This document shows, in pieces, positions 2,747 through 17,777 of a stretch of 25,134 nt of DNA. Origin of the DNA: a virus (lineage: Duplodnaviria; Heunggongvirae; Uroviricota; Caudoviricetes). The DNA lies in the IMG/VR virus record IMGVR_UViG_2778261505_000007, positions 1 through 25,134 of that record; one strand, 5' to 3'. How positions within the stretch are numbered: the first letter of the stretch is position 1; each line of letters starts with the position of its first letter. Below the pieces are notes generated by a model. The model made no database searches, was not told the DNA's origin, and saw only the letters and a list, made by a program, of their open reading frames with translations. Made by a program: the position numbers and the translations under genes.

Positions 2747-2795
2747 AAATATCTCTCTTGGTTGCAGTGCGGCGCGCGTGGCGCCGCGGTGGTGG

Positions 2796-3677
2796 TTACA
2801 TAGATGTTTCGTTTAATTCTTCCCGACGAACGCTGTAAACGTCGGTGGCTTTTGCCAGCAGTTCGTCATCATCTGAAAGTTTTTGTGCAATGTATTTGTA
2901 AGCCTTATCCAGTTCGGAGACAGTGCTGTAATTCATCGCTGCGCTGGTAAAGGCCATCAGCATTTCTTCTGGATCACGGCTATCCTCTTTACGCGTTTGC
3001 TCATCAGGCTTTTTCGCTGGTTTAGCGTTGATCAGACTGTTCATTCCCGCAGCAGTGGTCGTTTGCGGAGTAATGTCTCGCTCAACGCGCGGTGCCGTTT
3101 CCTGTAATTCGTCAGGGGTGTAAACACCGAGAAGTACATCAGGAGCGTGCAGGCGAGCCCATCGTTTCGTGCAAAGATAGGCAAGCTGCTGGCGCGGATC
3201 CTGTTCCCACAATGGAGAGTTACGCACTCCGGCTTGCGCCATACTGATGGTAAGCTCACGGGGTTCTGCTTCTCCTTTAAGAACTGCTGACACAGTTACC
3301 GTCAGATTCGGTGATTTATCTGTTTTGCCGTTAACATTCGACCAGTCACCGCTCCAGCGATAATTCAGGCGTGTCGCTAGCAGGCTGGAAGAGGATACGA
3401 CCGCGTTTACCAACTGTGCTTCGTAGCCTAACGTTCCGTTTACCACATGCGTTTTCTGCGCCACGGCGAAAGGGTTCATTCCCCACTGTGCCGCCTGCAT
3501 GGTCACCGCCAGACAATCGGCAGGTTTGCCTTCAAGATGTTTCGGTACAGTCGCTTTGCTTTGTGACATCAACTCCGCGAAACGCACCAGTTGATTCATG
3601 CCCTCCGGGCTGAAGATTGCCGCAGCAGTACCTACAGTTGCGCCTGGTTGTGATGTGATTGCGATATCATTGCTCAT
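2796..3677 (-). CDS. ssDNA-annealing recombinase, Bet/RecT family
   Basis: 293-aa protein with segments resembling lambda Bet (ERDITP, SPLWEQ..RQQL..L..KRWARL). Its start overlaps the stop of the upstream exonuclease (ATGA), the classic exo-annealase pairing. Confidence 0.8.
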   Translation of the reverse strand: MSNDIAITSQPGATVGTAAAIFSPEGMNQLVRFAELMSQSKATVPKHLEGKPADCLAVTMQAAQWGMNPFAVAQKTHVVNGTLGYEAQLVNAVVSSSSLLATRLNYRWSGDWSNVNGKTDKSPNLTVTVSAVLKGEAEPRELTISMAQAGVRNSPLWEQDPRQQLAYLCTKRWARLHAPDVLLGVYTPDELQETAPRVERDITPQTTTAAGMNSLINAKPAKKPDEQTRKEDSRDPEEMLMAFTSAAMNYSTVSELDKAYKYIAQKLSDDDELLAKATDVYSVRREELNETSM

Positions 3678-4965: not shown

Positions 4966-4980
4966 TTACCGTTGAGGTAA
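4966..4980. promoter_or_regulatory. Operator-like palindrome OL1 (TTACC-GTTGA-GGTAA)
   Basis: Perfect 5+5 inverted repeat with 5-bp spacer, abutting the putative -10 of the leftward promoter. Confidence 0.6.
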
Positions 4981-5008
4981 TGATTATGCGTATTTGGTTT
5001 GATGTCAA
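4980..5008 (-). promoter_or_regulatory. Putative leftward early promoter (P_L-like)
   Basis: On the minus strand: -35 TTGACA (plus 5003-5008), 17-bp spacer, -10 AATCAT (plus 4980-4985). Flanked by OL1 and OL2. Confidence 0.45.
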
Positions 5009-5027
5009 TAGATATGAGTTAAAAAAA

Positions 5028-5042
5028 TTACCTATTAGGTAA
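5028..5042. promoter_or_regulatory. Operator-like palindrome OL2 (TTACC-TATTA-GGTAA)
   Basis: Perfect inverted repeat 62 bp centre-to-centre from OL1, 20 bp upstream of the -35. Confidence 0.6.
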
Positions 5043-5051
5043 TAGTATAGG

Positions 5052-5078
5052 CAATAAAAAAGCCGCCAGAAGGCGGCT
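5052..5078 (-). terminator. Rho-independent terminator downstream of the repressor gene
   Basis: Hairpin AGCCGCC-AGAA-GGCGGCT followed on the minus strand by TTTTTATT, 22 bp past the repressor stop. Confidence 0.6.
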
Positions 5079-5099
5079 TACTTACTGAAAAATATGATT

Positions 5100-5684
5100 T
5101 TATTGTTTGTTTTTTTCGTTCTGGTTGATGACAAATTCAATGTAACTTTCGATCTTTGCCTTCTCTGTTTCAGGTAACAATGCGTAGCGCGAGCGGTCAT
5201 AGTTGATAGTCGCTGGGTCGTGCGGGTGAATCAGTAATTCATATCCGTGACGCCCAAATGCGGATGCAACATTCTCCAGGGTGGAAATGGAAACGCTGAC
5301 CTCATTGTTTAACAGGCGGCTGATTGTTACCTGGGCGACGCCGGATGCGCGGTGAAGTTTTCCCTGCGTTGAAAGGTCGCGGCTTTCGCTCATCCAGCGT
5401 TCCAGGTTGTGAGCCGCCAGCTGGCCAATGTCGCTTGGGCCGACAGGCTGAAAACCTTCCTGAGAAAGCGAGCGATCGATATCAAGCCAGTTACGGGGTT
5501 TATTGGCGGCAGCTTCAATTTTTCGTGCAACCTGGTCGCCGATAACCTTCTTGCCAAGAGCCCAGCGGTTTACCAGATTTGCCTGAGTTCCAAGTTTTTC
5601 AGCCATCCGCGTCTGAACACCATTGAATTCACGGTCGATCAAGTCGTTGAGATTTTGCCTGCGGACGTCCTGGATACTTTTCAT
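5100..5684 (-). CDS. CI-like prophage repressor, two XRE-type HTH regions, no S24 peptidase domain evident
   Basis: 194-aa ORF flanked by operator clusters and divergent from a cro-like gene. HTH-like segments TRMAEKLGTQANLVNRWALGKKVIG and GVAQVTISRLLNNEVSVSISTLENVASAFG. No GDSM-like serine or Ala-Gly cleavage motif found. Confidence 0.7.
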   Translation of the reverse strand: MKSIQDVRRQNLNDLIDREFNGVQTRMAEKLGTQANLVNRWALGKKVIGDQVARKIEAAANKPRNWLDIDRSLSQEGFQPVGPSDIGQLAAHNLERWMSESRDLSTQGKLHRASGVAQVTISRLLNNEVSVSISTLENVASAFGRHGYELLIHPHDPATINYDRSRYALLPETEKAKIESYIEFVINQNEKNKQ

Positions 5685-5739
5685 TTTCTGGAAAATCGCC
5701 TCATATCTGAATCAGAAGATGATTCAATTTAAAGCAATA

Positions 5740-5754
5740 TTACCCAACAGGTAA
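5740..5754. promoter_or_regulatory. Operator-like palindrome OR-a (TTACC-CAACA-GGTAA)
   Basis: Perfect inverted repeat in the cI-cro intergenic region. Confidence 0.6.
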
Positions 5755-5784
5755 ATGCACCTCATGGGTAACTATCCTTGATTT

Positions 5785-5813
5785 TTGTTACCTTATAGGT
5801 GAATATTTATTAT
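5785..5813 (+). promoter_or_regulatory. Putative rightward promoter for cro (P_R-like)
   Basis: -35 TTGTTA (5785-5790), 17-bp spacer, -10 TATTAT (5808-5813), about 25 bp upstream of the cro ATG. Confidence 0.45.
5788..5802. promoter_or_regulatory. Operator-like palindrome OR-b (TTACC-TTATA-GGTGA, one mismatch)
   Basis: Lies between the putative -35 and -10 of the rightward cro promoter. Confidence 0.5.
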
Positions 5814-6124: not shown

Positions 6125-6139
6125 GTACCTCAAAGGTAA
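6125..6139. promoter_or_regulatory. Operator-like palindrome (GTACC-TCAAA-GGTAA, one mismatch)
   Basis: Sits just past the cro terminator and upstream of the small Cys/His ORF. Confidence 0.45.
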
Positions 6140-6435: not shown

Positions 6436-7251
6436 ATGAGCAGACATGCAACAGATTGGGCCTGGGAGACAGATCCAGGCAGCTCATCATTAAAGCTCAT
6501 ACTGCTCTCGATGGCTGACAGAGCCGATGAATATAACCTCTGCTACCCCAGCATAGAACGCCTCGTTAAAGACACTTGCCTGAATAAAAAAACCGTACAG
6601 GCCGGGCTTATATCACTCATGAGAATGGGGCTTATTTCAGATACCGGAGAGAGAAAGGGGGCGACGAAAAGAGTGCGGGTTTTCTCTCTTAATATAACCA
6701 AAAAAGGGAACATTAAAGGCAACCTGGAAGGGTGTAATGAACCCGAAAACGGTAATGTTCCCGAAAACGGGAATATACCCAAAAACGGGATGTTGAATGA
6801 TCCCAAAAACGGGATGTTGAATGATCCCAAAAACGGGATCCAGAACCAGTCATATAACCAGTCATATAACCAAGAGAGGGAGAGCAGGACAAAAACCGAG
6901 GATTCTGTGCCTCATGACCCCGGCGCAAACAACGCCGTGATGAATAACTTTGTTCCTCCTGGTGGGCCAGGGCAATTAGGCAAATTTGTCATGCATGAAC
7001 AATGGCAGCCATCAGATGACTTTCTTCGGAAAAGCTCATTGCAGGGGATCTACCTGGACAGTCTGCCAACGGCACAGGAACTTGCAGAGTTCAGAATTTA
7101 CTGGATGGCTGAGGGTAAGGCATACCATCAGGCACAGTGGGAGCAGAAGCTGGCAAGGCGGCTGCAGATTAGCAGACAGAAGCAATCAACATTACCTGAT
7201 AACAACGTTCCGCACTGGAACAGCCCTGAAGCATGGGAGGATTTCTTGTGA
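6436..7251 (+). CDS. Replication initiator (lambda O-like) with origin iterons inside the gene
   Basis: 271-aa ORF immediately upstream of a lambda P homolog. The coding sequence contains five tandem DNA repeats, giving the peptide repeats PENGN/PKNGMLND; this matches the lambdoid arrangement of ori inside O. Confidence 0.75.
   Translation: MSRHATDWAWETDPGSSSLKLILLSMADRADEYNLCYPSIERLVKDTCLNKKTVQAGLISLMRMGLISDTGERKGATKRVRVFSLNITKKGNIKGNLEGCNEPENGNVPENGNIPKNGMLNDPKNGMLNDPKNGIQNQSYNQSYNQERESRTKTEDSVPHDPGANNAVMNNFVPPGGPGQLGKFVMHEQWQPSDDFLRKSSLQGIYLDSLPTAQELAEFRIYWMAEGKAYHQAQWEQKLARRLQISRQKQSTLPDNNVPHWNSPEAWEDFL
6742..6867. repeat. Putative origin of replication: five direct iterons (CCCRAAAACGG core, 18-24 bp units) plus a 2x AACCAGTCATAT repeat
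   Basis: Direct repeats read at 6742, 6760, 6778, 6802 and 6826; the 6778 and 6802 copies are identical 24-mers. Followed by a tandem 12-mer at 6844-6867. Confidence 0.7.
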
Positions 7252-8070: not shown

Positions 8071-8085
8071 TTACCTATCAGGTAA
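8071..8085. promoter_or_regulatory. Operator-like palindrome (TTACC-TATCA-GGTAA)
   Basis: Perfect site 20 bp upstream of a -35-like TTGATT. Confidence 0.55.
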
Positions 8086-8104: not shown

Positions 8105-8133
8105 TTGATTTCGTGTCTTATGTGGTTTTTAAT
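8105..8133 (+). promoter_or_regulatory. Putative promoter for the 8151-12117 operon
   Basis: -35 TTGATT (8105-8110), 17-bp spacer, -10 TTTAAT (8128-8133). Same geometry relative to the two palindromes as at P_L. Confidence 0.45.
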
Positions 8134-8147
8134 TACCTCAGAGGTAA
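8133..8147. promoter_or_regulatory. Operator-like palindrome (TTACC-TCAGA-GGTAA)
   Basis: Perfect site abutting the -10 and overlapping the Shine-Dalgarno of the 8151 gene; 62 bp centre-to-centre from the 8071 site. Confidence 0.55.
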
Positions 8148-12236: not shown

Positions 12237-12832
12237 TGATGCCTGCTGAACCTAAAACCTATAAACGCAAATCAACGCAATTTAAGCCACTAACCGCAAT
12301 GCAGGAGGCTTATTGCCAGTCATACATCAAAACGCCTGAAAACCAGACTCAGGCAGCGATTAACGCAGGATTCTCCCCAAATACAGCGGCAGTTAAAGCC
12401 AGTGTCATGATGCGCGATGAACGCATTCAAAAACGGATTGCCGAGTTGATGGAGGAGCGCAACAAACGAATGCGCGTCAGTGCCGATTACGTTCTCATGC
12501 GCCTGGTGGAGATCGACCAGATGGACGTGATTGATATCCTCAACGACGATGGGAGCCTTAAGCCAATCCGCGAGTGGCCGAAAATCTGGCGCACTACGCT
12601 TAGTGGCTTTGATCTGTCATCGACCATCATGAACATGAACGAGGATTCGATAGAGACAATCCTCAAAAAAATTAAATGGCCTGACAAGGTGAAGAACCTC
12701 GAACTGATTGGTAAGCACGTCGACGTCAACGCATTCAAAGAACGCCTGGATGTTAATGTGAATGTGACAATTGCTGATCGCATAGCGGCAGCCAGGAAGC
12801 GACTCAAAGAACGTCAGGATGGTAATCAGTGA
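12236..12832 (+). CDS. Terminase small subunit
   Basis: Translation has the pattern typical of phage small terminases (LTAMQEAYCQSYIKTPENQTQAAINAGFSPNTAAVKASVMMRDERIQKRIAEL). True start is taken as ATG 12236/12239 because the ORF-track N-terminal extension runs through a terminator. Confidence 0.8.
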   Translation: MMPAEPKTYKRKSTQFKPLTAMQEAYCQSYIKTPENQTQAAINAGFSPNTAAVKASVMMRDERIQKRIAELMEERNKRMRVSADYVLMRLVEIDQMDVIDILNDDGSLKPIREWPKIWRTTLSGFDLSSTIMNMNEDSIETILKKIKWPDKVKNLELIGKHVDVNAFKERLDVNVNVTIADRIAAARKRLKERQDGNQ

Positions 12833-14298
12833 CAGATACAGCGTTATCTCCTGAAGAGCAGTTGATCGAGGATATTGCAGGGTTCACTCACGATCCGCTT
12901 GGCTATGCCCTCTATGCGTTCCCGTGGGGGGAAGAGGGGACTGAACTGGCACATGCTACCGGCCCACGTCAGTGGCAGGCTGATGCGTTCCGAGAGATAC
13001 GTGATCACCTGCAGAATCCAGAGACGCGCTATCAGCCGCTTATGCTGGCACGCGCTTCGGGTCACGGTATTGGTAAATCCGCATTCATCTCAATGCTGAT
13101 CAACTGGGGCATGTCCACTTGCGAGGATTGTAAGGTCGTGGTGACCGCCAACACCGACAACCAGCTACGAACGAAGACCTGGCCGGAAATTATCAAGTGG
13201 TCGAACCTTGCTATCACGAAAGACTGGTTTACCTGTACCGCTACCGCGATGTACAGCAATGACCCTGGGCACGACAAGCGGTGGCGAGCTGACGCAATCC
13301 CCTGGTCTGAGCACAACACTGAGGCATTCGCCGGACTACACAACGAGCGCAAACGCATCATCGTGGTATTCGACGAAGCATCCAACATTGCCGATCTGGT
13401 GTGGGAGGTAGCAGAGGGTGCGCTGACGGACGAAGACACTGAGATTATCTGGGTGGCATTCGGAAACCCTACACGTAACACCGGGCGTTTCCGCGAATGT
13501 TTCCGCAAATATAAACACCGCTGGAAAACTGCGCAGATTGACAGCCGGACGGTGGAAGGCACTAACAAACAGCAGTTGCAGAAATGGGTTGATGACTACG
13601 GGGAAGACAGCGACTTCGTTAAAATCCGTGTGCGCGGCATATTCCCTGATGCATCTGAATTGCAGTTTATCCCTACCGGTCTTACTGATGAGGCAATGAA
13701 ACGGGTGGTAACCGCTGCGCAGGTGGCGCATGCTCCGGTGATAATCGGTGTTGACCCGGCATATTCAGGCGTTGATGACGCGGTGATATACCTGCGGCAG
13801 GGGCTACACAGTAAGGTGCTGTGGACTGGCAACAAGACTACCGACGATCTGATTATGGCGAAGCGTATCGCTGACTTTGAAGACCAGTATCAGGCTGACG
13901 CGGTGTTCATCGACTTCGGTTACGGAACCGGTCTGAAGTCAATCGGTGACGGATGGGGTCGTACATGGCAACTTGTTCCGTTCGGTGGCGCGTCTACTGA
14001 CCCGCAGATGCTCAACAAGCGTGGGGAGATGTTCAATTCATGCAAGACATGGCTGAGGCTGGGCGGCATGCTGGATGACCAGGAAACAGCAGACGACCTG
14101 TCGGCGGCAGAGTACAAAGTTCGAGTGGACGGTAAAATCGTTATCGAACCGAAGGAAGATATCAAGGAGCGGCTTGGGCGTTCGCCGGGTAAAGGCGATG
14201 CGCTACTGCTGACGTTTGCGTTCCCGGTAGCCAAGAAAACTAATGACCCACGGCAGCAGCAGGGCAGGGCTATAACAGACTATGACCCATTTGAATGA
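12829..14298 (+). CDS. Terminase large subunit
   Basis: 489-aa protein with Walker A-like ATPase motif (ARASGHGIGKS), an acidic Walker B-like region (IIVVFDEAS) and a C-terminal nuclease-like region. GTG start overlaps the small subunit stop. Confidence 0.9.
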   Translation: MTDTALSPEEQLIEDIAGFTHDPLGYALYAFPWGEEGTELAHATGPRQWQADAFREIRDHLQNPETRYQPLMLARASGHGIGKSAFISMLINWGMSTCEDCKVVVTANTDNQLRTKTWPEIIKWSNLAITKDWFTCTATAMYSNDPGHDKRWRADAIPWSEHNTEAFAGLHNERKRIIVVFDEASNIADLVWEVAEGALTDEDTEIIWVAFGNPTRNTGRFRECFRKYKHRWKTAQIDSRTVEGTNKQQLQKWVDDYGEDSDFVKIRVRGIFPDASELQFIPTGLTDEAMKRVVTAAQVAHAPVIIGVDPAYSGVDDAVIYLRQGLHSKVLWTGNKTTDDLIMAKRIADFEDQYQADAVFIDFGYGTGLKSIGDGWGRTWQLVPFGGASTDPQMLNKRGEMFNSCKTWLRLGGMLDDQETADDLSAAEYKVRVDGKIVIEPKEDIKERLGRSPGKGDALLLTFAFPVAKKTNDPRQQQGRAITDYDPFE

Positions 14299-14301
14299 TT
14301 T

Positions 14302-15150
14302 TTACTTTTGTGTTTTTGATTTTCTTTGATGGGTGGAATTTAAACCACCATTTATATTTACTAGAGGATTATTCAATAATGTACTGATTTCTGGATTGTT
14401 AATTCCAGTAACGCCAAGTTTCTTTACGGACTCATTAAGGTCTTGTAATGATTTTAGACCTACAAACCCATTAGCAATTGTATTATTTGTTGCCAAAGGA
14501 ATGTTTTTCTTATAGGACTCATATTCGTTTTTTAAATTTTTGTGGGCTTTTTCTAGATTTTCTAGTTTAGATGTTGTTTCATGAATAACCTTAGATAATT
14601 CTAAAATACGAGCTTGTGCTGCGCGCAGTTCTGTCTCCCTCTCTTTCAATTCAGATGTGAGTTGTCCCATTCTGTCTTTTGAAAGAATTATTTCCTCTTT
14701 CATGTCTTGAATGTTTTTTTCAGCGCCTGTTTTTACTTTTTCGTAAGTAATGTCTTTTTTAGCCAGCAATCTCTGTAGCCGTGTTTCACGTTGTATTTTT
14801 CTTGCCTTCCGGTGATTTTCGATTGAGTCATTATTATCAAGAGGCTTTGCTTGCCATACGTTAATGATATTGTTTACCCATGGTAATAGGCAGCAGATAG
14901 TAATTACAGATAAGCATGGATAAAACATAACAGTTTTCCATGTGCTGTTATCTGAGATGTATGAAATTTTATCTATTATATTTGATTTGCTAAAAAATAG
15001 ATAAAGAAGTGATTTCCAGTTGAAGGCGCACCAGGACATAACAAAAGCACCTAGCACAGGGTTTTTAGCTCGATGCACGGCAGTATTGGCAGTAGATAAA
15101 AACAGCTCTTTGAACGATTCGAACATACTAATTACCTTAAAGTTTTTCAT
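14302..15150 (-). CDS. AT-rich gene: membrane-anchored coiled-coil protein of unknown function (about 282 aa)
   Basis: Opposite strand to all flanking late genes and visibly AT-rich. Two hydrophobic segments (PVLGAFVMSWCAFNWKSLLYLFF; TVMFYPCLSVITICCLLPWVNNIINVW) followed by a long charged heptad-like region. Preferred start ATG 15150 (AAGGT Shine-Dalgarno); the longer track ORF to 15222 would translate through a terminator hairpin. Confidence 0.6.
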   Translation of the reverse strand: MKNFKVISMFESFKELFLSTANTAVHRAKNPVLGAFVMSWCAFNWKSLLYLFFSKSNIIDKISYISDNSTWKTVMFYPCLSVITICCLLPWVNNIINVWQAKPLDNNDSIENHRKARKIQRETRLQRLLAKKDITYEKVKTGAEKNIQDMKEEIILSKDRMGQLTSELKERETELRAAQARILELSKVIHETTSKLENLEKAHKNLKNEYESYKKNIPLATNNTIANGFVGLKSLQDLNESVKKLGVTGINNPEISTLLNNPLVNINGGLNSTHQRKSKTQK

Positions 15151-15154
15151 GATT

Positions 15155-15169
15155 ATACCTTTAAGGTAA
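15155..15169. promoter_or_regulatory. Operator-like palindrome (ATACC-TTTAA-GGTAA, one mismatch)
   Basis: Overlaps the Shine-Dalgarno/promoter region of the AT-rich gene. A TTACC half-site also at 15132-15136. Confidence 0.4.
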
Positions 15170-15184
15170 TTTGTGGTCATCAGG

Positions 15185-15209
15185 CAAAAAAATGCCCGGC
15201 GAACCGGGC
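15185..15209 (-). terminator. Rho-independent terminator downstream of the tRNA
   Basis: On the minus strand, hairpin GCCCGG-TTCG-CCGGGC followed by ATTTTTTT. Confidence 0.55.
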
Positions 15210-15372
15210 GAACTGGAAGCAATGAGTTATGCCTTCCGTGGCTGTACGGGTTTACAGCATGAAGTCATCGCAATGGCGTCCTGCTGTAAAAAGGGCGGTG
15301 ATAGTCCTTCAAGGGAAACCATCACCGCCAAGCCCCTGGAACTTCTGGCATCACGGTCCTTAGGCGTGATTC

Positions 15373-15449
15373 TGGCGCGGCATGCAGGATTCGAACCTGC
15401 GACCAACCGCTTAGAAGGCGGTTGCTCTGTCCAACTGAGCTAATGCCAC
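15373..15449 (-). tRNA. tRNA-Arg (anticodon UCU)
   Basis: Minus-strand 77-nt sequence GTGGCATTAGCTCAGTTGGACAGAGCAACCGCCTTCTAAGCGGTTGGTCGCAGGTTCGAATCCTGCATGCCGCGCCA folds by hand into a cloverleaf: 7-bp acceptor stem, GTTCGAATCC T-arm, anticodon loop CTTCTAA, encoded CCA. Related to but distinct from the host argU sequence as I recall it. Confidence 0.9.
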
Positions 15450-15771
15450 AACGCTGAGAGCACTTAGCCTGTTAAGGCACCACACTTTGTCGCGGCTCCA
15501 TAAATGCTCTCATCGTTGCACCCTCGTCTCTTCCGAGGTGTCACACCGAATCGCCGGGATGGTGAATCCCCGTGCGCGGAATAAAACCGCTCGACTTGCA
15601 CATTCCGGCTACCTGGTTCGTTTGCCCGAGCAAGGGAGGGTGCCCCTTAAACGTATCCAGACCGCTATCGGCGCATGTGCCATACACCGTACTGCTCAAA
15701 ATAAAAGCTCACCCCACCTGTTCAATTTAACGACAAGCCAGTCAGGTTAATAACCGGAATGAACTCTTTGC

Positions 15772-15786
15772 TTACCTGAAAGGTAA
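15772..15786. promoter_or_regulatory. Operator-like palindrome (TTACC-TGAAA-GGTAA)
   Basis: Perfect site about 90 bp upstream of the first virion gene. Confidence 0.55.
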
Positions 15787-15876
15787 TAATTAGTGCGTTA
15801 AATGTCAAGTATCTACGATAAATAAATCACATGTGGTTAAATTGGTAATAATTTAATTGCGTACGGAGTCATTGAT

Positions 15877-16083
15877 ATGTGCATGGGTAGCTCACCATCA
15901 GTGCCTGCAACACCAGAAGTTCAGGCAGCACCACAGGAGCAGGATGCCGCCGTTGTTGATGCCCGCGACGAAGAAACTCGTCGCCGTCGCGCTGCTGCTG
16001 GTCGTAGTTCTACGCTGCTTACCGGTTCTCAGGGCGACACATCAACCGCTAATACCAGCGGTAAAACGCTGCTTGGTCAGTAA
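15877..16083 (+). CDS. Small virion protein, possibly T7 gp6.7-like
   Basis: 68-aa ORF with GGAG Shine-Dalgarno, directly upstream of the portal. Begins MC... and is Ala/Arg/Thr-rich; similarity to T7 gp6.7 is tentative and recalled from memory. Confidence 0.4.
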   Translation: MCMGSSPSVPATPEVQAAPQEQDAAVVDARDEETRRRRAAAGRSSTLLTGSQGDTSTANTSGKTLLGQ

Positions 16084-16097
16084 CCGGAGTCATTGAA

Positions 16098-17777
16098 ATG
16101 GCGGAAACAACTAAAGAGCGATTGAACAAACAGTTCGCACAACTTGAAAGCGAGCGTCAGTCGTTCGAGCCGCACTGGCGCGAGTTGAGTGATTACATCA
16201 ACCCGCGTGGTTCCCGCTTTCTGACTTCTGAGGTCAACCGTAACGATCGACGGAATACACGCATTATTGATTCGACCGGGACTATGGCGGCGCGCACTCT
16301 CGCCAGCGGCATGATGTCAGGCATCACAAGCCCCGCGCGTCCGTGGTTTCGCCTGGCTACGCCAGATCCTGAAATGATGGATTATGGCCCTGTTAAGTTG
16401 TGGCTTGAGGCGGTGCAGAACCGCATGAACGATATGTTCAATAAGTCGAATCTCTACCAGTCTCTTCCGCAGTTATACGGAAGCCTCGGCACATACAGCA
16501 CTGGTGCAATGGCGGTGCTGGAGGATGACGAGGACATCATTCGCACAATGCCATTCCCGATAGGCAGTTACTACCTGGCTAACTCACCTCGTGGCAGTGT
16601 GGACACCTGTTTTCGCAAGTTCTCTATGACTGTTCGTCAGCTTGTTCGGGAGTTCGGGCTAAATAACGTCAGCGAATCCGTAAAAAGCATGTGGGAAAGC
16701 GGCACCTACGAGAAGTGGATTGAAGTGATGCATTCGGTTTACCCGAACATTGACCGCGATACATCGAAGCTGGATAGCAAGAACAAGCCATTCAAATCGG
16801 TTTATTACGAGGTTGGTGGCGATAACGACAAGTTGTTGCGTGAGTCCGGATTCGATGAGTTTCCAATTATGGCTCCGCGCTGGGAAGTTAACGGCGAAGA
16901 TGTTTATGGATCATCATGCCCGGGTATGCTGGCGCTTGGACCTGTTAAGGCATTGCAGCTTCTCCAGAAGCGCAAGTCGCAGTTGATTGATAAAGCCACC
17001 AATCCGCCGATGGTTGCTCCGACTTCCCTCAAGAATCAGCGCGCCTCCCTTCTTCCTGGCGACATCACGTATATCGATCAGATTACTGGTCAGGATGGTT
17101 TCAGGCCTGCTTATCTGGTTAACCCCAGTACAGCAGATCTGGTAGCAGACATTCAGGACACCCGCCAAATCATTAACAGCGCCTACTTTGTCGATCTGTT
17201 CATGATGTTGCAGAACATCAATACCCGCTCGATGCCTGTTGAAGCGGTGATCGAAATGAAAGAAGAAAAACTTCTGATGTTGGGGCCGGTTCTGGAGCGT
17301 CTGAACGACGAATGTCTTAATCCTCTCATTGACCGCGCTTTCTCGATGATGGTGCGTAAAAACATGCTGCCGCCACCGCCTGACGCGATGGAAGGTATGC
17401 CCCTGAAGGTCGAATACATTTCTGTCATGGCTCAGGCGCAGAAGTCTATCGGCCTGTCCAGTCTGGCGTCCACGGTTAACTTCATTGGTCAACTTGCGCA
17501 AGCGAAACCAGAAGCTCTCGACAAACTCAACGTTGATCAGGCGATCGATGCATTCGCTGATATGTCCGGAGTGTCTCCAACCGTCATTGTTCCGCAGGAA
17601 CAGGTTGAGCAGGCTCGCCAGCAACGGGCACAGCAACAACAGCAGCAACAAATGATGGCGATGGGGATGGCGGCGGCACAGGGTGCCAAGACGCTAAGCG
17701 AAGCTAAAACTTCGGATCCGAGTGTTTTGTCAGCTATGGCGAATGCAGTTAGTGGTCAGGGTGGGCAATCACAATGA
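16098..17777 (+). CDS. Portal (head-to-tail connector) protein, T7 gp8-like
   Basis: 559-aa protein. The C-terminal Gln/Ala/Met-rich tail (QQQQQQQMMAMGMAAAQGAKT) mirrors the T7 gp8 C-terminus, and size and position match. Confidence 0.85.
   Translation: MAETTKERLNKQFAQLESERQSFEPHWRELSDYINPRGSRFLTSEVNRNDRRNTRIIDSTGTMAARTLASGMMSGITSPARPWFRLATPDPEMMDYGPVKLWLEAVQNRMNDMFNKSNLYQSLPQLYGSLGTYSTGAMAVLEDDEDIIRTMPFPIGSYYLANSPRGSVDTCFRKFSMTVRQLVREFGLNNVSESVKSMWESGTYEKWIEVMHSVYPNIDRDTSKLDSKNKPFKSVYYEVGGDNDKLLRESGFDEFPIMAPRWEVNGEDVYGSSCPGMLALGPVKALQLLQKRKSQLIDKATNPPMVAPTSLKNQRASLLPGDITYIDQITGQDGFRPAYLVNPSTADLVADIQDTRQIINSAYFVDLFMMLQNINTRSMPVEAVIEMKEEKLLMLGPVLERLNDECLNPLIDRAFSMMVRKNMLPPPPDAMEGMPLKVEYISVMAQAQKSIGLSSLASTVNFIGQLAQAKPEALDKLNVDQAIDAFADMSGVSPTVIVPQEQVEQARQQRAQQQQQQQMMAMGMAAAQGAKTLSEAKTSDPSVLSAMANAVSGQGGQSQ

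Follow-up and report, generated by a model that had tools for sequence, protein, structure and literature searches.

A conserved antisense tRNA-Arg(UCU) gene of phiV10-like prophages and the variable RNA slot in which it lies

We analysed a 25,134-nt stretch of viral DNA (hereafter the window; IMG/VR record IMGVR_UViG_2778261505_000007, positions 1 to 25,134) that carries, on the minus strand at 15373-15449, a tRNA-Arg gene with the anticodon UCU beside an AT-rich gene. Sequence comparison identifies this tRNA gene as an already-annotated, standing gene of the backbone of phiV10-like Uetakevirus prophages. We favour, as rather probable, the reading that it encodes a working AGA-decoding tRNA, which is expressed with the early genes and aids the AGA-rich early and accessory genes, the AT-rich neighbour included but not specifically. 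The tRNA itself is known and ordinary, another case of a temperate phage with a rare-codon tRNA.

Fold, identity and distribution of the tRNA

ARAGORN revealed a single tRNA in the 25-kb window, the tRNA-Arg with the anticodon TCT at 15373-15449 (-), and Rfam matched it to RF00005 at full model length, with a score of 69.4 bits (gathering score 29; E 1.9e-13), all stems paired and zero mispairs. The 77-nt product ends with ...AUGCCGC-G-CCA, hence the CCA is encoded; the complete, well-folded tRNA-Arg(UCU) described in an earlier note on this DNA is thus borne out by both programs. The acceptor stem GUGGCAU/AUGCCGC contains a U2-G71 wobble pair and is followed by the discriminator G73. The cloverleaf has stems of 7/4/5/5 bp, and U8, A14, G18G19 and the GTTCGAATC T loop are all present, as in a bacterial elongator tRNA. 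The anticodon UCU sits in the 7-nt loop CUUCUAA between U33 and a purine (position 37), and this loop is the same as that of E. coli argU. The identity set of the E. coli arginyl-tRNA synthetase (ArgRS) comprises A20, C35, U36 or G36, and A73 or G73. The window tRNA has A20, C35, U36 and G73, and the Salmonella and Klebsiella alleles have A73.

Compared to argU (dnaY), the host's rare AGA reader, the window tRNA is identical at 65 of the 77 positions and differs at the other 12. The two share their length, the anticodon loop, the T arm, G73, the encoded CCA and the D arm apart from position 20a; by contrast, three pairs of the acceptor stem and two of the anticodon stem differ, each being replaced by another standard pair, and two bases of the variable loop differ as well. 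Their settings also differ, as argU is chromosomal and lies beside the DLP12 integrase, whereas the phage gene is prophage-borne, antisense to the late operon, and preceded by a long leader and an operator-overlapped promoter. Across ten alleles and argU, 210/210 pair cells hold standard pairs and six pairs show double changes, a covariation that 0 of 500 shuffles reached; one allele carries the double change of C5-G68 to U-A. The four common alleles make up 141 of 169 loci, their only differences being at positions 16 and 17 of the D loop and in the pair 2-71 (U-A or U-G), and a few rare alleles have single stem mismatches. Because the stem differences are compensated, the common alleles near-uniform and the ArgRS identity set intact, the divergence pattern points to a tRNA under selection to function. 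Judged by the same differences, the gene is not a copy of host argU, in agreement with the earlier note, which had thought a simple host copy unlikely.

Alleles with at least 95% identity were found in 507 records from a set of 5426 complete E. coli genomes, and the tRNA was present in 78 of 80 IMG/VR contigs whose portal is 99-100% identical; of the other two, one is truncated and one holds a different RNA. The gene is also present in Salmonella SPN1S-type and Klebsiella phages. The O157 typing phages 9 and 10, phiv142-3, vB_EcoP_ZX5, SPN9TCW, SPC32H and Klebsiella ST512-KPC3phi13.3 all have the same gene at the same position with 95-100% identity, and at this locus the neighbouring cargo is the sole difference between the phiV10-like phages and the window. 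None of 20 more distant relatives, with portals of 43-83% identity, carries a tRNA; in the relatives, ARAGORN at its default settings gives either tRNA-Arg(UCU) or nothing. Allowing introns and an 80% threshold produced scattered and inconsistent calls on both strands of the tRNA-less relatives, which we took as noise rather than as hidden tRNAs.

The comparison with other phage tRNAs that had been proposed in the earlier note yielded an allele identical to that of the window (U2-G71) in phage HEMP4, and a match of 79-80% over 71 nt to the tRNA-Arg(UCU) of Stx2-converting phages. The latter is likewise a rare-codon tRNA, alone or with a few others, on a temperate enterobacterial phage, and codon supplementation is the usual explanation for the tRNAs of such phages. 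In Stx phages the tRNA genes precede the toxin genes within the late region and share their strand. Unlike them, the window tRNA sits between the terminase and portal genes, on the opposite strand and in a seemingly early, operator-controlled unit. The gene is annotated in several GenBank phage records and throughout the RefSeq E. coli genomes, and the sole mention met in the literature, in the paper on vB_EcoP_ZX5, just lists "one tRNA" (PMC9782041). Literature searches on phiV10 with tRNA, on Uetakevirus with tRNA-Arg and on the RNA motif Methylophilales-1 found no functional study and no data on expression of the tRNA, and the paper on the P2 Old tRNase, examined for relevance to tRNA-Arg, had none.

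The window itself is a Uetakevirus (epsilon15/phiV10-like) prophage. This assignment follows from its matches of ~98-99%, from position 15186 onwards, to phiV10, the O157 typing phages 9 and 10, TL-2011b, phiv142-3 and vB_EcoP_ZX5, and from the gene order in a lysogen of the same arrangement, in which the prophage lies beside guaA and runs through integrase, RecT, repressor, replication genes, terminase, tRNA, portal and capsid genes. The Salmonella SPN1S group matches the window region at ~82%.

The antisense unit and the use of AGA

The position that the earlier note gave the tRNA, between terminase and portal on the opposite strand, is confirmed by family matches of both flanking genes. The large terminase subunit (12829-14298, +) matches phrog_2 "terminase large subunit" (E 5e-52) and has the same annotation in relatives, and the portal, or head-to-tail connector (16098-17777, +), matches Pfam PF12236 Head-tail_con with 622.6 bits. 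The terminase gene converges on the minus-strand unit of cargo and tRNA. A promoter-like site aimed at the tRNA (15780-15808, -) consists of TTGACA, a 17-nt spacer and TACCTT, and this TTGACA-17-TACCTT arrangement is conserved from E. coli to the Klebsiella and Citrobacter relatives. Its -10 hexamer is contained in an operator-like palindrome, TTACCTGAAAGGTAA, at 15772-15786. The palindrome TTACC-N5-GGTAA occurs at 12 sites in the window against 0.42 expected, among them 4966-4980, 5028-5042, 5740-5754, 5788-5802, 6125-6139, 8071-8085, 8133-8147, 15155-15169 and 15772-15786.

Two copies of this palindrome stand on each side (4966 and 5028; 5740 and 5788) of a helix-turn-helix repressor gene (5100-5684, -) in the immunity region (4966-5802). 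In SPN1S and an epsilon15-type phage, three plus three copies flank the repressor gene, and Tyrion has comparable clusters on both sides. SPN1S, Tyrion and VB_ST_E15 each have a copy at the promoter of the equivalent slot and at other early or accessory promoters; in the window, too, the palindrome is seen on the promoters of several other early or accessory units. We consider it probable from this distribution that the palindrome is the operator of the repressor and is used genome-wide. The same palindrome is found in all four genomes examined, so there is no covariation of operator and immunity type to compare. As the -10 hexamer lies within this presumed operator, induction or infection would derepress the tRNA unit, in contrast to constitutive expression in the lysogen; the tRNA is probably made at those times.

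Between promoter and tRNA lies a conserved, putatively structured leader of ~320 nt (15450-15773, -; fold z -2.5), and no coding signal is present upstream of the tRNA. An 18-bp stem (15518-15501 with 15466-15449, inverted repeat I2) abuts the 5' end of the tRNA and is kept in relatives by compensatory change, for example from GAGAGCA/TGCTCTC to AAGAGCA/TGCTCTT. The RNAalifold consensus of the leader consists mostly of invariant pairs, with six that covary, and is thus suggestive of a fold. The 18-bp stem encloses a second variable insert; in several relatives (SPN9TCW, L005, ~2790-2880 on the minus strand; L130, L099 and L189) this insert holds T-arm-like pieces such as CTGGTTCAATTCCAG.

Downstream, a hairpin AATCACGCCTAAGGACCGTGAT (15350-15371, -) begins 2 nt past the CCA end and is the same in eight aligned relatives from several genera, save for one loop base. 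It is followed by two terminator-like hairpins, both with a run of T. The first (15287-15329, -; hairpin 15329-15294) has a 14-pair stem and then CTTTTT and appears in both the minimum-energy and the centroid folds, and the second (15186-15209, -; hairpin 15209-15194) consists of GCCCGGTTCGCCGGGC and then ATTTTTTT and ends the conserved downstream block. The terminator that the earlier note had assigned to the tRNA therefore does follow it, but as two such hairpins and not one. A terminator scan of the region gave six sites against 1.9 expected, and the 187-nt trailer has a much more stable fold than shuffled versions of it (z -3.0). A permissive Rfam search of 15100-16150 (E up to 1) returned the tRNA alone, with no family in leader or trailer.

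Taken together, we propose that a sigma-70-type promoter drives a minus-strand unit within the late operon, in which the leader would be followed by the tRNA as the last module, the near-invariant hairpin and the two intrinsic terminators. With its -10 hexamer inside a palindrome of the kind that flanks the repressor gene, the promoter would be under repressor control and derepressed on induction or infection. The tRNA-processing enzymes of the host would excise the tRNA from this precursor, host ArgRS would charge it, and the mature tRNA would read AGA, the codon of the rarest tRNA of E. coli. The likely benefit would be quicker translation of early and accessory genes once the promoter is derepressed.

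The codon statistics provide the demand side of this proposal. Excluding the AT-rich cargo gene, the prophage genes have 5.9 AGA per 1000 codons, compared to 1.0 in 41 host genes near the insertion site in one lysogen (odds ratio 5.8, P 3e-10), a roughly sixfold excess in the prophage, as expected for codon compensation. The earlier note had named this comparison beforehand as its test and would have given way if no prophage gene were enriched; the enrichment is real, and that objection therefore falls. Early genes of the prophage use AGA more than late genes (8.5 versus 3.8 per 1000 codons, P 0.012), and one AGA-rich early gene (6436-7251), with a 271-aa product, contains seven. Replication genes are rich in the codon too, as are AT-rich accessory genes like the cargo gene. 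The AT-rich cargo gene reaches 14.2 per 1000 codons, which is no significant excess over the rest of the phage (P 0.09).

Several findings weigh against the proposal. The -10 hexamer of the tRNA-unit promoter matches the consensus at just 3 of 6 positions, and the promoter scores below the threshold of the promoter scan. The genes of TerS, TerL, portal, protease, major capsid and cement proteins contain zero AGA; the codon is therefore absent from the most strongly expressed structural genes, and bulk late translation does not need the tRNA. Nor do relatives that lack the tRNA use AGA less, as Enterobacter phage Tyrion (no tRNA) has 7.4 per 1000 codons against 5.5 in Salmonella phage SPN1S (with tRNA) and 6.3 in the window; in this sample of three genomes, compared with an approximate gene caller, AGA enrichment does not follow the presence of the tRNA. 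Moreover, an epsilon15-type phage has lost the entire cassette together with the leader core, and a sibling with a 100% identical portal has a non-tRNA RNA in place of the tRNA, from which it follows that the tRNA is dispensable.

Other RNAs in the same slot

Most enterobacterial members of the 20 distant tRNA-less relatives retain the flanks of the slot. On the minus strand, both flanks are conserved, ...AGTGCTCTCAGCGTT|GTGG on the 5' side and AATCACGCCTNAGGACCGTGAT with terminator 1 behind it on the 3' side, and the content between them varies. Using the hairpin AATCACGCCTAAGGACCGTGAT as an exact search pattern, we found at least 119 viral contigs and collected 146 non-redundant contexts. 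In 109 of the 146, the occupant is tRNA-Arg(UCU); about 15 have a scaffold of the form GTGGTGAAT-GCGCAGGCTGATGCGC-[40-170 nt variable]-GCCGGAGATCAGCACCGGC-CACCAC-A-CCA/ACC, nine a 92-99 nt RNA resembling Methylophilales-1, and the remainder other RNAs, some of them with canonical T arms such as GCCGGTTCGAATCCGGC. Every occupant starts with GTGG and ends with CCAC, then A or G, then CCA or ACC, and GUGG/CCAC likewise forms the four outermost acceptor pairs of the phage tRNA-Arg.

The scaffold has a D-like and a T-like hairpin around a hypervariable insert, with compensatory changes at seven pairs. In one relative (L130, 3971-4017, +) the insert contains a hairpin that matches a helix of 16S rRNA (Rfam small-subunit (SSU) model positions 172-218, 38 bits, E 3e-7); relative to the E. 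coli 16S sequence, its stem differences appear to be compensated. Segments similar to this hairpin were also noticed in L186, L147 and L178. One scaffold insert is common to a Buttiauxella prophage and an E. coli prophage with a portal 100% identical to that of the window. Among complete E. coli genomes, the tRNA form is found in ~500 records and the scaffold form in 2-5.

In architecture, the alternative cassettes may be likened to tmRNA and to the bacterial YrlA/Y RNAs, as they combine an acceptor-like helix, in which the two ends pair, and a 3' A-CCA or A-ACC with D-like and T-like hairpins and a large insert at the place of the anticodon arm. Both tmRNA and the YrlA/Y RNAs are tRNA-like scaffolds with a foreign internal domain, and the likeness is one of architecture alone. 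ARAGORN and Rfam reported no tmRNA or Y RNA among the alternative cassettes, no tag reading frame was seen in them, and no Rsr/Ro60 gene lies nearby.

Citrobacter-type relatives match RF03011 (Methylophilales-1) over its full length at seven of eight loci searched (L092 4323-4418 (-), L103 4320-4415 (-), L142, L180, L197, L207 and L093), with 22.9-30.3 bits, well below the gathering score of 79.9. The alignment runs from end to end, and the RNA and the model have in common their closing helix as well as the GAAUAAGGCA and UGCCGA-AUAGA blocks, which are single-stranded. At 23-30 bits this RNA is at most a candidate member of the family, and it is not in the window itself; the sequence likeness is consistent with a distant, prophage-borne relative of the orphan motif Methylophilales-1.

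The slot can also be emptied or doubled. The epsilon15-type Salmonella phage VB_ST_E15 (L230, ~2750-3130, minus strand) retains the promoter with its operator and the beginning of the leader, which is directly followed by terminator 1, and the junction of the deletion sits in the loop TTCCCTTGATGCT that is common to a leader hairpin and the terminator hairpin. The cassette and leader core have apparently been lost by recombination between these two TTCCCTTGATGCT-loop hairpins. L089 and L093 hold two complete cassettes in tandem, and the locus can thus behave as a short array. Two further observations were made around the cassette: weak DicF-like matches (E 0.45-1.4) lie just past it in two relatives, over the region of the terminator hairpin, and a group II intron (L149, 3929-4154, +; Rfam RF02005, 186.6 bits) lies ~3 kb from the cassette hairpin of a related viral contig.

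A tentative alternative to AGA supply is suggested by this variety, namely that the main value of the tRNA is not codon supply and that it is one of several interchangeable tRNA-shaped RNAs in a fixed, repressor-controlled early slot of an accessory or counter-defence island. The occupants could then be replacements or decoys for host RNAs hit by defence nucleases, or else RNase P-recognised modules for the processing or stability of the conserved leader RNA, and the tRNA-Arg of the E. coli phages would be merely the version that also decodes. Stated for the whole group, the terminase-portal antisense unit of Uetakevirus-like prophages would be a repressor-controlled "RNA cassette" locus whose RNAs act as counter-defence or host-manipulation factors, with the tRNA as one specialised member, a generalisation that we regard as possible but rather doubtful. 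Its frame may consist of the operator-overlapped promoter, a structured leader of ~200-320 nt, a GUGG...CCAC helix with a 3' CCA, the near-invariant hairpin and tandem terminators. In E. coli, Salmonella and Klebsiella phages it presents a genuine tRNA-Arg(UCU), and in others the scaffold with its hypervariable insert, in one case mimicking a 16S rRNA helix, or the Methylophilales-1-like RNA.

In favour of this alternative are the other RNAs presented by the same frame across the 146 contexts (the scaffold, the Methylophilales-1-like RNA and others), the seven compensated pairs in the scaffold hairpins, the insert that matches a 16S rRNA helix, the insert common to E. coli and Buttiauxella prophages, and AGA use that is independent of the tRNA in three genomes. 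The adjoining protein slot holds a Tad2-like anti-Thoeris domain in some relatives, and because of this neighbourhood the RNAs might be counter-defence or host-manipulation factors. Several points speak against it. All identity elements are kept under purifying selection as a decoder, which is needless for a decoy, and besides colicin D we know of no defence nuclease specific for tRNA-Arg(UCU). The tRNA form outnumbers the scaffold form in E. coli by ~500 records to 2-5, which suggests that decoding itself is selected there. The proposal that phage tRNAs counter tRNA-depleting defences has been published and lends the alternative plausibility, but it predicts escape in the anticodon loop, through changes at the positions that nucleases recognise (PMC10264068); here the loop is identical to that of the host isoacceptor, and the stems alone are changed.

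Searches of the literature and Rfam found no description of the slot architecture, its apparent repressor control or the family of alternative tRNA-shaped RNAs. At this one position, natural variation among near-identical prophages gives a real tRNA, a tRNA-shaped RNA that is no tRNA, or a deletion, and their adjoining protein slot varies as well. The set therefore offers nearly isogenic comparisons on why phages carry tRNAs, whether for codon supply or for counter-defence, and the slot, as far as sequence comparison can tell, points to a family of phage RNAs for which we found no description.

The adjoining protein slot and neighbouring features

The AT-rich cargo gene next to the tRNA (14302-15150, -) encodes 282 aa from the RefSeq start and matches phrog_4780. 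The predicted features of its product are membrane segments at the N terminus and a coiled coil. The gene has a GC content of 0.34 (trough 33-36%), compared to ~0.50 elsewhere in the window. The earlier note had seen AGA for at least two of five Arg codons in one decoded stretch; across the whole gene, four of the 11 Arg codons are AGA and one is AGG. Its protein family spans 201-310 aa with the same layout of membrane segments plus coiled coil, a GC content of 0.36 and 16 AGA per 1000 codons. A promoter of its own is predicted at 15152-15180 (-), with ATGACC, a 17-nt spacer and TATAAT, overlapped by the operator-like palindrome at 15155-15169. Pfam gave nothing above threshold for the protein. 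A role in defence was considered and set aside, as the PADLOC matches (LmuB, DruC, PD-Lambda-1 and JetC) are weak (best E 7.6e-5, at most 20 bits) and confined to the coiled-coil stretch.

Comparison of the slot across relatives labelled L001-L087 showed that the interval from the terminase stop to the conserved block at 15186 (14299-15185 in the window) ranges from an empty 135 bp up to 1296 bp. Its contents are minus-strand genes throughout, in eight clusters of unrelated proteins, and the tRNA block remains 96-100% conserved beside all eight and beside empty slots. The commonest cargo, Phage_gp49_66 (Pfam), is found at 34 loci including phiV10, with a GC content of 0.48 and 0.4 AGA per 1000 codons, and another cluster corresponds to a Tad2-like anti-Thoeris domain (86 bits). 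In relatives, the small cargo genes begin ~11 nt past terminator 2 and lack a separate promoter; this closeness and the missing promoter suggest that they are read through from the promoter of the tRNA unit. From these comparisons, the AT-rich gene is one of many exchangeable occupants, of at least eight families, of a hot spot adjoining the tRNA backbone.

The earlier note had suggested that the tRNA arrived with the AT-rich gene and may support its expression. Acquisition of the two as one module, with the tRNA serving that cargo, would fit the adjacency on the same strand, the GC content of 0.34, the four AGA among 11 Arg codons and the AGA-rich protein family, yet we judge it very improbable. 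Most relatives with a near-identical portal (78 of 80) keep the tRNA beside any of the eight cargo families or an empty slot, and phiV10 has the tRNA with a 123-aa cargo gene of normal GC content. The present cargo and the tRNA occur together in just 18 complete E. coli genomes, against 507 records with the tRNA. The cargo also lies beyond two terminators and has its own predicted promoter, and both the shift in composition and the boundary of phiV10 conservation fall at ~15186, 187 nt past the tRNA and after terminator 2. What survives of the suggestion is the abundance of AGA in the cargo, which such a tRNA could serve; the tRNA is not kept for the cargo, because the commonest cargo hardly uses the codon.

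Equally hard to sustain is the idea that the tRNA gene is a target of site-specific integration, with the cargo as an islet that entered at its 3' end, although variable cargo on the 3' side of a tRNA is classic for island insertion. The slot has no integrase open reading frame (ORF) in 14302-15372, the last 25 nt of the tRNA have no repeat elsewhere in the window even when three mismatches are allowed, and none of the direct-repeat families around the cargo involves the tRNA in an att-like manner. The variable part starts 187 nt past the tRNA rather than within it, and homologous recombination between the conserved end of the terminase gene and the conserved terminator block would be a simpler route of exchange. 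With neither integrase nor far-boundary repeat, a tRNA-targeted integrative island was rejected. That the tRNA is a decaying, non-functional relic, for which its dispensability in relatives and the few rare alleles with a single stem mismatch might be quoted, is just as improbable in view of its high score and perfect cloverleaf, the near-uniform common alleles and the compensated stem changes. Direct tests thus contradict the co-acquisition, att-site and pseudogene models alike, and AGA decoding for early and accessory genes remains the reading that we prefer.

Three minor features of the region were noted. A plus-strand terminator-like hairpin at 14332-14349, GGTGGAATTTAAACCACC and then ATTTATATTT, lies ~35 nt past the terminase stop, within the 3' end of the AT-rich gene. 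Were it active, late transcripts would reach the portal gene only by reading through it. A 90-aa ORF (15171-15443, +) is antisense to the tRNA and overlaps it, and its counterparts in EC.W1-9 and SPN1S (2546-2716) are called hypothetical proteins; all of these are probably annotation artefacts. Between the tRNA and the portal gene lies a conserved 68-aa ORF (15877-16083), and its start region and that of the portal gene (15864-15879 and 16085-16100) share a near-identical 16-nt sequence, CGGAGTCATTGA(T/A)ATG.

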